A DNA stretch of 64,000 nt from a virus, in the UHGV virus genome UHGV-0054069; one strand, 5' to 3'. The position numbers and the translations under genes are program-made. The notes below the pieces were generated by a model. That model was given only the letters and a program-made list of their open reading frames with translations. It was not told the origin of the DNA and searched no databases. This document shows positions 37,339 to 46,023 of this stretch, in pieces. The stretch's first letter is position 1. Every line of letters starts with the position of its first letter.

Positions 37339-39293
<1,955 letters not shown>

Positions 39294-39294
<1 letters not shown>

Positions 39295-41181: not shown

Positions 41182-42039
41182 ATGTTTAAAAAGATTGAAA
41201 ACTTTTATGAGAAAACATTGGACGAAAGAACTGTAACTCAATTCAAAGACAAGTTTATCTACACAAGCCTATTGAAATCTATCACAGATGAGTTACAATT
41301 ATTAGAGGATATTAGTAATCAGTTATATACTGAAAGGAATATTCGTGTAGGTGTTGGCACACAACTTGATAACATCGGGGCTTTAATTAAAGTCCCTAGA
41401 CCTATTGGTGCTGATGATGACACTTACAGAGCTATCCTCTACATTCAAATTTTCTTAAGACGTTCTGACACTACACCAAGCTTTTTACAAAAAGCTGTCA
41501 TGACTCTTTACGATGCCTCATTCAGCCAGATTTTTGAGCATATTACGCCAAATACTGGTGGGATTGTTGTCCGTGTAAACACTCGTAATAATGTGTTAGA
41601 TACAGCATACACGCTTTCTAAGATTGCTGCAACAACTATTGGTTCAGCAGTTATCCTTAGAGATGTTACCTTAAATGGTACTGCTTGGACTCCTGTAGAG
41701 GTTGCTGATTCATCTCTGGCAATCACTGATGAGAGCAACAACTGGTTCGTAACCAACACTAACAAGGGTCTAATTACGAACAACACAGGTGGCTCCCTAG
41801 AAGCAAATAAATTAGGTAGTTTTGCAGATGCAGGTGTAAGAGATGGTTATGTCAGAGTTGATAAAACTGGTGGCAGTGCCAGTAAAGATTATTTAAAAGT
41901 CAGCAAAACAAACAATAGCAACGACTATTTTATTGCTGGTAAAGAAACAGTAGCGGGTGGTGATTATGGGGTTATGGCAGAAGTCGCCCAAATCGTCAAA
42001 GGCAGAAAAGATAAATCTCAACAAGAAGGAAGTTCATAA
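41182..42039 (+). CDS. baseplate/tail fibre-associated protein (putative)
   Basis: start moved to ATG 41182 with AAGGAG RBS. Confidence 0.4.
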
Positions 42040-42338
42040 TGTCTCTTTCATGGTCTACAGACACAGTGGATGCTGATGGTAACCAGCTTAAAGTTTTACC
42101 ACCTCCAGAAATTCAAGCCACTGGCCTATTAAGGGGTGAGCCTATGGGTCGTCAGTGGTTCAACTATATTATCAACTATTTGCTTAATAAAGTAAATGGT
42201 ACGGTTGGAGAGGTTCGTTCATTTGCTACGGAGCAACCTGATTTAGTTGCCAATGGTTGGGAATTAATTGACACAGTAACAGGGACTGCACACACCAGCA
42301 CTACTAACCTTTACACATATGAATATAAAGGGAGCTAA
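42039..42338 (+). CDS. hypothetical tail protein
   Basis: position. Confidence 0.4.
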
Positions 42339-42340
42339 TA

Positions 42341-43516
42341 ATGGCAGTCGGTGAAATTCAAATTAGTGCATTACCTCAAGCCTCATTACCTATTGATTTA
42401 AGTGATATCTTTCACCTTAAGCAAGGTATTGAGGATAGGCGATGCACACTTGAGCAATTACTTGCTCCACACGCATCTTTGAGAAATAACCCACACGGTG
42501 TTACAAAGGTTCACGTAGACCTTGGGAATGTTGTTAATGCACTCCAATTAGTGGCTGCTAATAACTTGTCAGATGTGGTCAGTGTTGAAGAGGCTAGACA
42601 GAATCTTAATATTCTATCAAGTGATGAAGTCAATACTCTTATCCAGAACCACATTAATGACAAGAATAATCCTCACAACACCAACAAGATTCAAGTAGGT
42701 TTGTCTAATATCCAAAACTGGACATATTCAAACTCTTATTCTGAAGATGCTGATAAGTATGCTACTGCAAAAGCTGTGAATGCTTTATATAGAGCTATTC
42801 AGGATAGCTATCCAATTGGTACTATTCATTTATCAGTTAACCCTGCGAACCCAACTACATATTTACTTTGTGGTGGTACTTGGGAGTTAGTTTCTAAAGG
42901 AAGGTCTCTTGTTGGTTATGACACAGATACAAGACCTGTAGAATCAGTATTTGGTTCTGCTACTGCAACACTTACACAAAATAACATTCCAAGTCACACA
43001 CACTCTGTGTTGCTAACTGGTGGTGGGCACTCTCATAATGCAACAGTAGTAATTTCTAGCTTTGACTATGGGATTAAGAACACATCAAGTTTTGATTATG
43101 ATTCTAAGGCCACAAATGACTCTGGAAGCCACGCTCATAACGTTAATGGTTCTGTAAGCAGTGCTGGTAGCCACAGCCACAGGATTCCATTGAGGGGTTC
43201 TGACAGGGGTGGTGTGAACGCTATCACAGCATCGGCTGATGCAGGTATTGGTAATGCGTCATATACAGACTTTGATGGGGTTCATACACATACATTCAAC
43301 GTTAACTCTTCAGTTGGTGGTAACCACTCTCACAGTGTGTATATTGGAGCACATGGACACAGTGTTGTAATTGGTTCGCATGGACACTCTGGTACTGTGA
43401 CAGTTCAATCTTCTGAACACACTCACTCAGGAACAACTGGTGCATTTGGTGCTGGACAAGCATTTAATATTGAGCAACCTTCTTATGTTGTATATGTTTG
43501 GAAGAGAACTGCGTAA
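42341..43516 (+). CDS. tail fibre protein with C-terminal HxH repeats
   Basis: repeated HxH (SHTHSV, GHSHNA, SHAHNV, SHSHRI, VHTHTF, NHSHSV, HGHS) and C-terminal ..YVVYVWKRTA. Confidence 0.6.
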   Translation: MAVGEIQISALPQASLPIDLSDIFHLKQGIEDRRCTLEQLLAPHASLRNNPHGVTKVHVDLGNVVNALQLVAANNLSDVVSVEEARQNLNILSSDEVNTLIQNHINDKNNPHNTNKIQVGLSNIQNWTYSNSYSEDADKYATAKAVNALYRAIQDSYPIGTIHLSVNPANPTTYLLCGGTWELVSKGRSLVGYDTDTRPVESVFGSATATLTQNNIPSHTHSVLLTGGGHSHNATVVISSFDYGIKNTSSFDYDSKATNDSGSHAHNVNGSVSSAGSHSHRIPLRGSDRGGVNAITASADAGIGNASYTDFDGVHTHTFNVNSSVGGNHSHSVYIGAHGHSVVIGSHGHSGTVTVQSSEHTHSGTTGAFGAGQAFNIEQPSYVVYVWKRTA

Positions 43517-43561
43517 TTATTTTATAAGGGGCTACACAGCCCCTAGAAAGAGGATTTATAA

Positions 43562-45937
43562 ATGGCTGAATATAAGCTAAGTGAGCTAAACAGTATTGAC
43601 ACAGTTCGCTCAGAAGATTTACTTCACCTAAGAATTATCAAAAGGTCTGATATGCTAGGTGATGAAGACCGTAAAATGACCTATGCAAATTTCCTTGCCT
43701 CTTTCAAACTAGAAAGATTCTTACAACTAACTGGTGGGGATATGACAGGGAATCTTGGCATCGTCAAATTAAGATACGGTGGAAAAGACTTATTAGACCC
43801 AACAGGTTCTTCTGAGGTTATTCTCGGTGACACTGCCAAGACCTTTAGAATTAATGCGAGTGCTTTAAGATTAACTGTAAACGATGCCACAAGGTCTGCA
43901 ACAGTTTATCACACACTTAATAAACCATCTCCTAATGAATTAGGTATGAGAACTAATACTGAAAATGATGCAAGATATGCTATGAAGGAAACTGAAAATA
44001 CTTTCTTGGCAAGACAAATCATTAATATCAACGGTGTTGGTCTAACACTTAAAAGTATCTTACCAGATGGTGGAGCATATATTGAAGCAAGGGACTCAAA
44101 TAATGCTTTGAGATTCACAGTTGGTAACTTGACTTCTGGTACTGATGTTACATTAGTTAATAGTAAGGGTGCTACGTTGACTCTTGGCACAAACTCTGTT
44201 AGTGTTGATAAGAATTTTGAAATCAATGGACAGGTTCAGCCTAATAACTGGAATAACCTTGATGCAAGATTCTTTACACAAACTGCTGCTGACCAGAGAT
44301 TTGCAAAACTTAATGCAAGTAATAACTTTGTTGGGGTTAACAACTTCAATGGTAAGACTTATGTTATTGCAGATAGTAATGCACTTAACTTAAGAGCGGT
44401 TACAGAGAATGCTGCATTATTTATGCGTGGTTATAACAGTGCTGGGACAGGAACTTGGTATGTAGGTCAACCAGATGGTACGCAGTCTGAGATTGTTTTA
44501 GCAAACCAGATGACAAATGTTAACTTGAAAATTGCTACAGAGTTTTCATTTAACAAAGCTATCAATGTAGCTGGTCAGGTAAAACCAAGTGACTTTTCTA
44601 ACTTTGATACAAGATATGTTCCAAGCTCTTTGACGAACGTTCTTGCAAGAACTAATGCTGCAAACGTTTTTACTAGTCCACAGACTATCAATACTGACAG
44701 CGACAATCCTTTTAGACTACAGGCAACAGTACAAGACTCTGGAATCTACATGTCTGCACATAATGCTAATGGGGGCAGGAGATGGTGGTTGGGTATTGGT
44801 GATGCTGGTCAAAACAATGTGGTACTTAACAATGATGTAACAGGAAAGGCAATCAATATTGGTACTGATTTAGATGTGAATACACATGTGAATATTGTTG
44901 GACAAGTAAGACCAAGCGATTGGTCAAACTTTGACTCAAGATACTACACACAATCTGCTTCAAACTCAAGATATATGTTGTCTGGTGTATCTGGAACGGG
45001 AACAGAAGTTGGTGATACAACAGGTATTGCTTGGAATTCAAAAACAGGTTTGTACAGTGTTACAAATTCAACTGGTGGGTCTACTCACTTAGTTTACCAA
45101 ATGTACCTTGGAGTTGGTGCATCTACACCGACTGCACAGTTTAAATTTAACTACAAGAATACTGGAATCTATTATAGAACAGCAAGGGATGGATTTGGTT
45201 TTGAAGAGGTTTGGGCTAAAATCTACACAGACCAAGACAAACCTACACCCTCTGAACTTGGTGCTTACACCAAGGCTGAAGTAGACCAACGTATTGCTTC
45301 CGCTGTAACTGATGCTACAGACCTTAAGAAAGTGTATCCAGTTGGTATTGTGACGTTCTTTGCTTCTAATGTCAACCCAAATACAGCTTTCCCAGGCACT
45401 ACTTGGACTTACTTAACTGAGGGTGCAAACAGAACTATTAGGATTGGTTCTGAAAATGGCTCTGATGTGAAAGGTCTTGGTGGTGCTGATACGGTTGCAT
45501 TAAGTGTTGGTCACATCCCTGCACACACTCACGGCTTCTCTGGGACAACTTCTTGGTTTGACTATGGAACTAAGTACACAGATGGTCAGGGTGCTCACGA
45601 CCATGACAGAGGTAATATGGAAATCTCTGGTAACTTTGGATGGTTTAGAAGTGATAATAACTCGTTCTACGTTGCAGACGGTGCTTTTGCAATGAGTGGT
45701 AGCCAAGGTGGGCATAGCTGGACAGGTTCTAACTTCACTTATGGTGCGCCAGTTAACTTCTATGCTTCCAGAACTTGGACAGGTAGAACAAGTTGGGGAG
45801 GTGCTCATGCTCACGGTGTAGGCATTGGTGGACACAACCACACATTCAGTGGTGACACTGGTGCAACTGGTTCTGGTGCAGCATTCAGTGTTCTTAACAC
45901 TTACATTAAACTAATGGCTTGGGTAAGAACTGCATAA
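43562..45937 (+). CDS. long tail fibre protein with internal repeats and C-terminal HxH motifs
   Basis: three ~90-aa repeats (V.P..W.N.D.R); C-terminal AHTHGF, AHDHD, AHAHGV, HNHTF; ends ..AWVRTA like the preceding fibre. Confidence 0.6.
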   Translation: MAEYKLSELNSIDTVRSEDLLHLRIIKRSDMLGDEDRKMTYANFLASFKLERFLQLTGGDMTGNLGIVKLRYGGKDLLDPTGSSEVILGDTAKTFRINASALRLTVNDATRSATVYHTLNKPSPNELGMRTNTENDARYAMKETENTFLARQIININGVGLTLKSILPDGGAYIEARDSNNALRFTVGNLTSGTDVTLVNSKGATLTLGTNSVSVDKNFEINGQVQPNNWNNLDARFFTQTAADQRFAKLNASNNFVGVNNFNGKTYVIADSNALNLRAVTENAALFMRGYNSAGTGTWYVGQPDGTQSEIVLANQMTNVNLKIATEFSFNKAINVAGQVKPSDFSNFDTRYVPSSLTNVLARTNAANVFTSPQTINTDSDNPFRLQATVQDSGIYMSAHNANGGRRWWLGIGDAGQNNVVLNNDVTGKAINIGTDLDVNTHVNIVGQVRPSDWSNFDSRYYTQSASNSRYMLSGVSGTGTEVGDTTGIAWNSKTGLYSVTNSTGGSTHLVYQMYLGVGASTPTAQFKFNYKNTGIYYRTARDGFGFEEVWAKIYTDQDKPTPSELGAYTKAEVDQRIASAVTDATDLKKVYPVGIVTFFASNVNPNTAFPGTTWTYLTEGANRTIRIGSENGSDVKGLGGADTVALSVGHIPAHTHGFSGTTSWFDYGTKYTDGQGAHDHDRGNMEISGNFGWFRSDNNSFYVADGAFAMSGSQGGHSWTGSNFTYGAPVNFYASRTWTGRTSWGGAHAHGVGIGGHNHTFSGDTGATGSGAAFSVLNTYIKLMAWVRTA

Positions 45938-45945
45938 TTACCTTG

Positions 45946-45974
45946 TTGACTAACTGTCAAGATGGTGTTAATAT
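45946..45974 (+). promoter_or_regulatory. sigma70-like promoter (TTGACT-N17-TAATAT) overlapped by palindromes
   Basis: TTGACTAACTGTCAA palindrome and GATGGTG..CACCATC inverted repeat. Confidence 0.5.
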
Positions 45975-46023
45975 TTCTTAGTAGGTATTCTCACCATCTT
46001 GGCTCAAGAAGTAAGGTGATTAA

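Follow-up and report, generated by a model that had tools for sequence, protein, structure and literature searches.

Short and long tail fibres of a Felix-O1-like Mooglevirus with predicted T4 gp37-type HxH tips

Among Ounavirinae phages, the Mooglevirus Sf14 and the Felixounavirus Bas63 have been the subject of published cryo-EM and AlphaFold work (PMC11821841, PMC12609058). Sf14 carries two fibre sets folded back along the tail, with single-protein fibres, and its genome was reported to contain no homologues of Mu-type chaperones (PMC11821841). Mass spectrometry detected its fibre proteins gp52 and gp53 in virions, and they were docked as fibres of 430 Å and 630 Å, respectively. Residues 31-36 of the short fibre were assigned to the baseplate-binding region, the HxH motif was discussed for the tail needle and not for the fibres, and the LPS outer core was hypothesized to be the receptor (PMC11821841). 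For one Mooglevirus, resistance has been mapped to genes of the LPS core (PMC12671091). In Bas63, whose tail fibres are about 52% identical to those of Sf14, a structurally conserved N-terminal baseplate-binding domain was described, and both fibres comprise a collar, a six-stranded needle with di-histidine motifs, and a small head, from which the chain runs back to the collar (PMC12609058). The collar-needle-head architecture is already published for these sister phages. In the tip of T4 gp37, domain D11 (residues 882-1009) is inserted into domain D10 (residues 811-881 and 1010-1026); D11 holds seven Fe ions, and H929 and H931 are essential (PMC6957217). Because the range of bacteria that a phage can infect is set by its tail-fibre tips, the location of the receptor-contacting residues matters for host-range engineering in Shigella and E. 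coli phages.

We analyzed a 64,000-nt stretch of the virus genome UHGV-0054069 (the window). Sequence comparison identifies its positions 42341-45937 as the short and long tail fibre genes of a Felix-O1-like Mooglevirus (subfamily Ounavirinae), a Shigella/E. coli phage. The DNA of this locus is 98% identical to Shigella phage ESh22 and 94.7% (about 95%) identical to Sf14. A first-pass annotation, made from the letters alone, had placed two fibre proteins in this span, and its coordinates are exact: the ORFs are 42341-43516 (391 aa) and 43562-45937 (791 aa), both on the + strand. Its reading of the products as two tail fibres is borne out by PHROG matches (short fibre, phrog_2097 tail fiber, E 5.5e-126; long fibre, phrog_4277 tail fiber, 1289 bits over the full length) and by the orthologues found in Sf14 virions. 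Neither protein matched a family in NCBIfam. Sf14 gp52 (391 aa) and gp53 (792 aa) are encoded in the same order as here (Subramanian et al. 2025, PMC11821841), and Bas63, compared by its published description, has the same two-fibre arrangement of STF gp26 and LTF gp27 (Sci Adv 2025, PMC12609058). The surrounding gene order (wedge, wedge, 99-aa protein, short fibre, long fibre, 64-aa protein, holin) agrees with the Sf14 and Bas63 wedge components. Both window proteins correspond to the Ounavirinae fibre pair in sequence and length, and their genes likewise follow those of the baseplate wedge in the same order. The genes and the predicted parts of their products are:

42341..43516, + strand: short tail fibre gene; 391-aa ORF, orthologue of Sf14 gp52, matching Bas63 STF gp26 in position and length
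42341..42778, + strand: N-terminal part of the short fibre (aa 1-146); baseplate-binding region with an EDRRCT motif, and shaft
42779..42994, + strand: first collar part of the short fibre (aa 147-218), corresponding to T4 gp37 D10 residues 811-881
42995..43426, + strand: needle and head of the short fibre, inserted into the collar (aa 219-362), from alignment to 2XGF
43427..43516, + strand: closing collar part of the short fibre (aa 363-391 plus stop codon), ending ...YVVYVWKRTA
43562..45937, + strand: long tail fibre gene; 791-aa ORF, orthologue of Sf14 gp53, matching Bas63 LTF gp27 in position
43946..44947, + strand: three tandem shaft repeats of the long fibre (aa about 129-240, 241-352, and 353-462), from Pfam gp37_trimer, internal BLASTP, and MAFFT
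44984..45319, + strand: knob of the long fibre similar to phage Mu tail fibre S (aa 475-586), Pfam gp37_C, PF12604
45320..45523, + strand: first collar part of the long fibre (aa 587-654), from BLASTP to the short fibre, hhalign, and Foldseek
45524..45841, + strand: short needle and enlarged head of the long fibre (aa 655-760), from alignment to 2XGF
45842..45937, + strand: closing collar part of the long fibre (aa 761-791 plus stop codon), ending ...IKLMAWVRTA

The short fibre is 95-100% identical to Sf14 gp52 in every 20-aa block but one (85%). Its shaft contains the motif NNPHxxxKxxVxLxNxxN twice (aa 49-67 and 109-127). The first collar part is defined by Pfam Gp10_C (PF21939, 62.8 bits on this protein against a gathering cutoff of 27) and by alignments to 2XGF, 2FKK, and 5HX2; AF2 models it with a pLDDT of 83-93, and the closing collar part with 89-91. 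The long fibre is 95-100% identical to Sf14 gp53 over most of its length; it departs from gp53 in a cassette around aa 380-440, where identity drops to 25-45%, and to some extent at aa 700-720. HxH positions and C-termini are identical in the Sf14 and window fibres. N-terminal similarity between the two window fibres was not significant by BLASTP (E 0.91), although an EDR(R/K)xT motif is common to both N-termini.

Three internal repeats had been noted in the long fibre from the outset, and their number holds: Pfam gp37_trimer (PF20744) covers three stretches (E 8.9e-44, 147.9 bits against a cutoff of 21.7), which match one another at 27-28% identity (E 1e-9 to 1e-14). Their period, given as ~90 aa, is about 110 aa. 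The repeats are anchored by GQVxPx[ND][WF]xN[LF]DxR[FY] at aa 223, 338, and 447; they emerged from masked segment searches, self-BLAST of the whole long fibre having returned the diagonal only. The knob that follows scores 65.3 bits with gp37_C (E 5.5e-18, cutoff 22.5), and aa 475-581 match the phage Mu tail fibre S (PDB 8JU3, E 5.8e-22). The Mu counterpart is part of a fibre assisted by a separate chaperone, whereas here the region forms an internal knob upstream of the T4-type tip. Gp10_C reaches 24.6 bits on the long fibre (E 5.4e-5), just under the 27-bit cutoff, and is assigned in precomputed annotation to nearly all homologues of the long tip; hhalign pairs the closing collar segment with the C-terminus of the short fibre.

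Comparison with the T4 tip domains had been proposed as a check on the first-pass reading, and both fibres match 2XGF, the crystal structure of the T4 gp37 tip (short fibre, aa 147-363, phmmer E 4.7e-23; long fibre, aa 632-767, E 1e-3). In the short fibre, the C-terminal 245 aa make up the part matching this tip. All seven Fe-coordinating HxH motifs of T4 (883, 915, 929, 966, 980, 989, and 998) lie opposite short-fibre motifs between 230 and 347; the motifs at 219 and 360 are extra relative to T4, at the collar end. In the long fibre, four of the seven are aligned (T4 883, 915, 980, and 989), so the T4 register is complete in the short fibre and partial in the long. The short fibre and T4 gp37 also have in common the 9-residue spacing HxHxVxIGxHxHxVxIGxHxH on the return strand, and the FDYGTK stem motif of T4 recurs in the window fibres. 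Both C-termini align with the ...NYIVRLA of gp37 (hydrophobic-x-R-x-A). The chain returns to the collar in each fibre, with collar sequence on both sides of the needle (aa 147-218 and 363-391 in the short fibre; 587-654 and 761-791 in the long).

The collar halves additionally match T4 gp10 (2FKK, E 2.9e-7; Foldseek probability 0.89-1.00), as does the long-tip model against gp10 in 5IV5 (Foldseek E 8.5e-4, probability 1.00). T4 gp10 and gp11 have the collar C-terminal strand motif of the window fibres without an inserted HxH needle, and gp12 has one HxH. The AF2 monomer models reached a mean pLDDT of 69 for the short fibre (79-sequence alignment) and 66 for the long tip (39 sequences), falling below 50 in both heads and at aa 706-730 of the long fibre; fold searches with these models gave no significant match to 2XGF. 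The sequence homology, the conservation of the HxH histidines, and the published work on Sf14 and Bas63 support the view that both fibres end in a T4 gp37-type HxH tip of common evolutionary origin.

The short fibre contains nine HxH motifs, at aa 219, 230, 264, and 278 on the predicted ascending strand and at 315, 329, 338, 347, and 360 on the descending strand, with 18/18 of their histidines within the last 175 residues. The long fibre contains four (aa 655 and 679 ascending, 749 and 758 descending). Such arrays far exceed what shuffled sequences produce: 1.5 motifs were expected in the short fibre (0/20000 shuffles reached nine) and 0.26 in the long (0/20000 reached four), or 0.44 when only the last 200 aa of the latter were shuffled (7/20000). 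The first-pass annotation had thus recognized genuine arrays, but not their size, which it put at about 7 and about 6. Those two figures are the numbers published for Bas63, where 7 HxH occur in the STF and 6 plus an HHxH in the LTF (PMC12609058), compared with 9 and 4 here. Across homologues, the HxH histidines are retained in 50-78 of 79 short-fibre and 26-39 of 39 long-tip sequences, whereas histidines outside the motifs are poorly kept (H58 in 5/79, H718 in 1/39). Within the needle they are the best-conserved residues, and the positions between them vary. A His-poor insert of 67 aa (RGNMEISG...ASRTWTGRTSW) separates the two HxH pairs of the long fibre; it is larger than the 28-aa tip of T4 gp37 (residues 932-959), and the homologue alignment marks it as an alternative head type.

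From these data, both proteins are very probably Mooglevirus tail fibres, likely homotrimers, with the N-terminus on the baseplate wedge and a T4 gp37-type far end that would contact the host surface, probably the LPS core; the two fibres may divide the labor between them. Each chain is predicted to form a globular collar, with the fold of T4 gp10, gp11, gp12, and gp37 D10, interrupted by a long beta-hairpin that would run out to a small head and back to the collar, and such a path would give a six-stranded needle in the trimer. At each HxH, the three chains would contribute six imidazoles to a single metal ion on the three-fold axis (Fe2+ in T4), which predicts nine metal sites in the short fibre and four in the long, with its larger, His-poor head. 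We infer this coordination by homology for both needles. The chain would then re-enter the collar, with the conserved ...W-x-R-T-A as its last strand. Receptor-contacting residues would accordingly lie not at the C-termini but at the hairpin turns, in the head loop between the ascending and descending strands of the short fibre (about aa 281-314) and, in the long fibre, at about aa 682-748. The Sf14 paper puts a 'C24-like' region mid-fibre (PMC11821841), whereas a T4-type hairpin topology would put that stretch at the physical tip.

The needle might instead be held by hydrophobic packing and hydrogen bonds alone, HxH being a compositional or structural feature of beta-strands that binds no metal. 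The number of motifs ranges from 0 to 13 among 146 diverse representatives (pairwise identity ≤50%) and from 3 to 19 among homologues, which makes individual sites dispensable, and three of the seven T4 sites are lost in the long fibre. This explanation is nevertheless unlikely, given that conservation falls on the needle histidines while intervening residues drift, and that these histidines align one-to-one with the essential, Fe-binding histidines of the T4 crystal structure. Michonne also retains nine HxH in total despite splitting them differently between the two strands, a pattern consistent with selection for axial-site number. For the 391-aa protein, a role as a gp10-like baseplate component and not a receptor-binding fibre is suggested by its sole Pfam name, 'Baseplate structural protein Gp10, C-terminal domain', and by T4 gp10 being the best fold match of its model. 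However, the gp37 tip is by far a better match than gp10, the alignment to it spans the HxH needle, a feature that T4 gp10 does not have, and cryo-EM has shown the Sf14 and Bas63 orthologues as 430 Å fibres along the sheath (PMC11821841, PMC12609058); we consider the baseplate assignment barely credible.

The tips of the two fibres could also owe their likeness to a recent duplication within the phage lineage, with W(K/V)RTA as a tag peculiar to that lineage, such as a signal for assembly or for recognition by a chaperone. The genes are adjacent, their C-terminal modules are homologous, and both proteins end in W-x-R-T-A; the first-pass annotation had quoted these ends correctly (...YVVYVWKRTA and ...LMAWVRTA) and had taken them for a shared tag linking the pair. 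Equivalent ends, though, occur in T4 gp10 (...RWIRIA), gp11 (...FERTA), and gp37 (...IVRLA), and 96 of the 146 representatives end in W-x-R-x-x, 40 of them literally in WKRTA. Among homologues of the short fibre, R389 is invariant and Y385, W387, and A391 are at least 90% conserved, as are the C-terminal W and R in the alignment of long-tip homologues. By sequence, W-x-R-T-A is the last strand of the gp10/gp11/gp37 collar domain and is not special to this fibre pair. A common origin of the tips stands at the family level, at which hhalign of the two tip families gave a probability of 100% (E 2.7e-46). It does not extend to closer kinship: short and long tips are 28% identical (BLASTP, E 1e-12), whereas tail-fibre and baseplate proteins from Erwinia, Photorhabdus, and Pantoea genomes share 43-50% identity with the long tip, which argues against a recent duplication. 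Duplication combined with a lineage-specific tag, already largely refuted by these comparisons, is very improbable, and we rejected it.

The preferred reading, in which each fibre carries a homologous T4-type tip, leaves some differences from T4. In T4, gp37 forms the distal portion of a fibre built from four proteins, whereas a single protein makes the whole fibre here, and gp37 requires the chaperones gp38 and gp57A. Scanning the flanks of the fibre genes revealed no chaperone gene among the neighboring ORFs; those of 64 and 124 aa downstream had no matches beyond PHROGs of unknown function, and one carries a putative-holin annotation. Folding may therefore differ from that of gp37. Dedicated chaperones are an accessory feature of T4 and lie outside the definition of the fold.

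The two-fibre reading with T4-type tips is supported but ordinary, and because the architecture is textbook T4 biology already published for Sf14 and Bas63, it brings no conceptual change. The practical gain is a corrected map, with receptor-binding residues predicted at the hairpin turns and the supposed C-terminal tag recognized as a buried structural strand of the collar. Two features of the long fibre have, as far as we found, no published description: the swap of the cassette that differs from Sf14, and the His-poor head. The cassette, about 60 aa long, lies in the third gp37_trimer repeat, mid-shaft, and separates the window phage, ESh19, ESh21, ESh22, and KMM2 from the Sf13-19 group. 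Among these otherwise near-identical Moogleviruses it is the only swapped piece of either fibre, and the metal-needle tip is not swapped, which suggests a possible host-range role for a lateral knob on the shaft. We offer only tentatively, as a doubtful possibility, that this knob and not the tip sets host range, and that the long fibre represents a second, His-poor head type on a shortened four-site needle, folding without a recognizable gp38-like chaperone. Tail-fibre proteins from other phages and from a Citrobacter genome carry the same 67-aa head.

DNA identity is 98% to Shigella phage ESh22 and ~95% to Shigella phages Sf13–Sf19, members of the genus Mooglevirus (subfamily Ounavirinae). 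Exactly two plus-strand ORFs occupy 42341–45937, and ORFs in other frames or on the opposite strand are all short (≤113 aa). The two fibre ORFs are orthologues of Sf14 gp52 (here the short fibre) and gp53 (the long fibre), published as two long tail fibres (PMC11821841, Feb 2025). The gene order, identical to that around the Sf14 fibres, comprises a baseplate J-like wedge (489 aa), a wedge (298 aa), a 99-aa protein, the short and long fibres, a 64-aa protein, and a putative holin; thymidylate synthase and DHFR follow on the other strand.

Features of the fibre locus and of the compared Citrobacter phage Michonne sequence (L006)
42039–42338, 99-aa ORF (phrog_4141, unknown function) immediately preceding the short fibre gene
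42341–43516, + strand, short fibre gene (ORF, 391 aa)
43527–43544, hairpin in the fibre intergenic spacer (AGGGGCT-acac-AGCCCCT, 7 bp, GC-rich)
43562–45937, + strand, long fibre gene (ORF, 791 aa)
44684–44942, mid-shaft cassette (long fibre aa ~375–460, third gp37_trimer repeat)
L006 642–1850 and 1896–4256, Michonne short and long fibre genes

By position, the 99-aa ORF matches the Bas63 'LTF platform' gp25 and Sf14 gp51, the latter entered as 'homolog of T4 gp11?' and absent from the mass spectrometry detections (PMC11821841). The 45-nt spacer between the fibre genes contains a Shine-Dalgarno-like AGAAAGAGGA and the 7-bp hairpin, which lies directly 5' of the long-fibre ribosome-binding site, is not followed by a T-run, and might influence how much short fibre is made relative to long fibre. 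Among the ORFs flanking the fibre genes, none was a gp38-like or Mu-type chaperone gene, a real difference from T4, which encodes chaperones. Just past the long-fibre stop codon and before the 64-aa ORF, a promoter-like site (TTGACT, 17 nt, TAATAT, extended TG) and a 10-bp inverted repeat (CAAGATGGTG ... CACCATCTTG) overlap one another (45946–46003).

Both fibres show sequence similarity to the T4 gp37 receptor-binding tip of known crystal structure (2XGF), and the first-pass interpretation of two tail-fibre tips is supported. The short-fibre match (aa 147–363, E 4.7e-23) aligns all seven T4 HxH motifs (883, 915, 929, 966, 980, 989, and 998) with short-fibre motifs 230, 264, 278, 315, 329, 338, and 347; motifs 219 and 360, without a T4 counterpart, sit at both collar-proximal hairpin ends. 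In T4 gp37 the seven sites hold iron, and changing H929 or H931 to alanine abolishes plaque formation (PMC6957217). The 9-residue register of the T4 return strand (HxHxVxIGxHxHxVxIGxHxH) is retained here too. The short-fibre flanks of the needle match the T4 gp10 C-terminal domain (2FKK, E 2.9e-7), and the region belongs to Pfam family Gp10_C (62.8 bits, cutoff 27). Predicted monomer models had a mean pLDDT of 69 (short fibre) and 66 (long tip), with heads below 50.

The first-pass annotation correctly reported HxH arrays in both fibres, yet its numbers (~7 and ~6) did not hold: we counted nine in the short fibre (aa 219, 230, 264, 278, 315, 329, 338, 347, and 360) and four in the long fibre (aa 655, 679, 749, and 758). 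Both are in large excess over shuffled sequences (1.5 and 0.26 expected, respectively), and 0 of 20000 shuffles reached either count; with shuffling confined to the His-rich last 200 residues of the long fibre, 7/20000 reached four. Each of the 18 motif histidines of the short fibre was kept in 50–78 of 79 homologues, the most divergent being 26% identical. Of the 39 long-tip sequences, all had H655 and H657, and 26–36 kept each of the remaining motif histidines. Non-motif histidines were poorly kept (H58 in 5/79 short-fibre and H718 in 1/39 long-tip sequences). The Michonne short fibre also carries nine HxH, distributed as three ascending and six descending compared with four and five here, as would be expected if the axial-site total is what is conserved.

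Distinct from the HxH array, the motif NNPHxxxKxxVxLxNxxN occurs twice in the short-fibre shaft, at aa 49–67 (42485–42541) and 109–127 (42665–42721); its histidines H52 and H112 are kept in 60/79 and 57/79 homologues. The central tail needle (38653–39294, 213 aa, orthologue of Sf14 gp47), without a match in the PHROG search, bears its own di-histidine motif, read elsewhere as a spike iron site (PMC11821841, PMC12609058).

The 2XGF match of the long fibre is weaker (E 1e-3) and aligns its four HxH with T4 883, 915, 980, and 989. A 67-aa His-poor stretch separates motifs 679 and 749; T4 gp37 has a 28-aa tip there, together with the two sites nearest to it. The Michonne long fibre has six HxH, and its head is 0–20% identical to that of the long fibre here at aa 680–740. 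Upstream of the tip of the latter, aa 475–581 resemble tail fibre S of phage Mu (8JU3, E 5.8e-22) and match PF12604. The proposed common origin of the two tips holds, judging by sequence, as a distant relationship: BLASTP aligned them at 28% identity over 242 columns (E 1e-12), and profiles built from homologues of each aligned with 100% probability (E 2.7e-46) from the collar YP(I/V)G motif through to the final amino acid; two additional needle segments are present in the short-fibre family. Recent duplication within the phage is unlikely because the long tip resembles tail-fibre or 'baseplate' proteins from Erwinia, Photorhabdus, and Pantoea genomes (43–50% identity) more than it resembles the short tip. 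The relationship is better explained by shuffling of domains between fibre genes.

The shared C-terminal ending, ..W(K/V)RTA, was quoted accurately in the first-pass annotation, but is not special to the pair. T4 gp10, gp11, and gp37 end in ...YRWIRIA, ...YHFERTA, and ...NYIVRLA; among 79 short-fibre homologues R389 was invariant, and Y385, W387, and A391 were each at least 90% conserved. A full HMMER scan with short-fibre aa 147–391 against 1.84 billion cluster representatives recovered 5786 proteins at E ≤ 1e-3 (286 at E ≤ 1e-10). Among the 146 newly listed in the best 150 matches, 96 ended in W-x-R-x-x (literally WKRTA in 40) and 32 in IVRLA. In T4 gp37, the needle D11 (882–1009) is inserted into the collar D10 (811–881 and 1010–1026) (PMC6957217). 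Given this layout and the family-wide C-terminus, the ending is the closing strand of the collar, which rules it out as part of the receptor-binding surface; its occurrence across the family likewise rules out a link peculiar to the two fibres.

The long fibre contains three internal repeats, as first noted, with a period of ~110 rather than ~90 aa, since the anchor GQVxPx[ND][WF]xN[LF]DxR[FY] recurs at aa 223, 338, and 447. Pfam gp37_trimer matches the three stretches (E 8.9e-44), which share 27–28% identity in masked segment searches (E 1e-9 to 1e-14). The mid-shaft cassette is the only fibre piece strongly divergent from Sf14 (25–45% amino acid identity at aa ~380–440, compared with 95–100% for most of the rest). 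It occurs at >98% DNA identity only in ESh19, ESh21, ESh22, and Citrobacter phage KMM2, and at 87% in E. coli phages REP8–12, and may represent a host-range cassette away from the tip.

We hypothesize that each fibre protein forms a trimer anchored to the baseplate wedge by its N-terminus, where the motifs EDRRCT and EDRKMT are located (PMC11821841); a baseplate-binding domain of conserved structure is described for Bas63 (PMC12609058). Both fibres would be folded along the sheath until deployment, as reported for Sf14 and Bas63 (PMC11821841, PMC12609058). At the distal end, three chains would build a needle of six strands held together by metal ions on its axis, putatively nine in the short and four in the long fibre, with the hairpin turn (aa ~281–314 and ~682–748, respectively) contacting the receptor. 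The receptor is likely LPS core, because a waaH-linked resistance mutant is described for a related Mooglevirus (PMC12671091) and the Sf14 authors hypothesized LPS outer core (PMC11821841).

The tip reading is correct and already known, since the Bas63 account gives essentially the same inference with the first-pass HxH numbers (PMC12609058). For Sf14, gp52 was described with a gp10 C-terminus-like domain and gp53 with a 'T4 gp37-like distal tip', HxH being mentioned for the central needle only (PMC11821841). The undocumented remainder is minor: the counts of nine and four sites, the family-wide C-terminus, the His-poor long-fibre head, and the divergent mid-shaft cassette. Elsewhere in the window, a plus-strand tRNA cluster (17514–22600) comprises 24 genes (among them three for Leu and two each for Met, Lys, Gln, Arg, and Ser), compared with a cluster of 18 reported for the related Mooglevirus Henu12 (PMC12671091).
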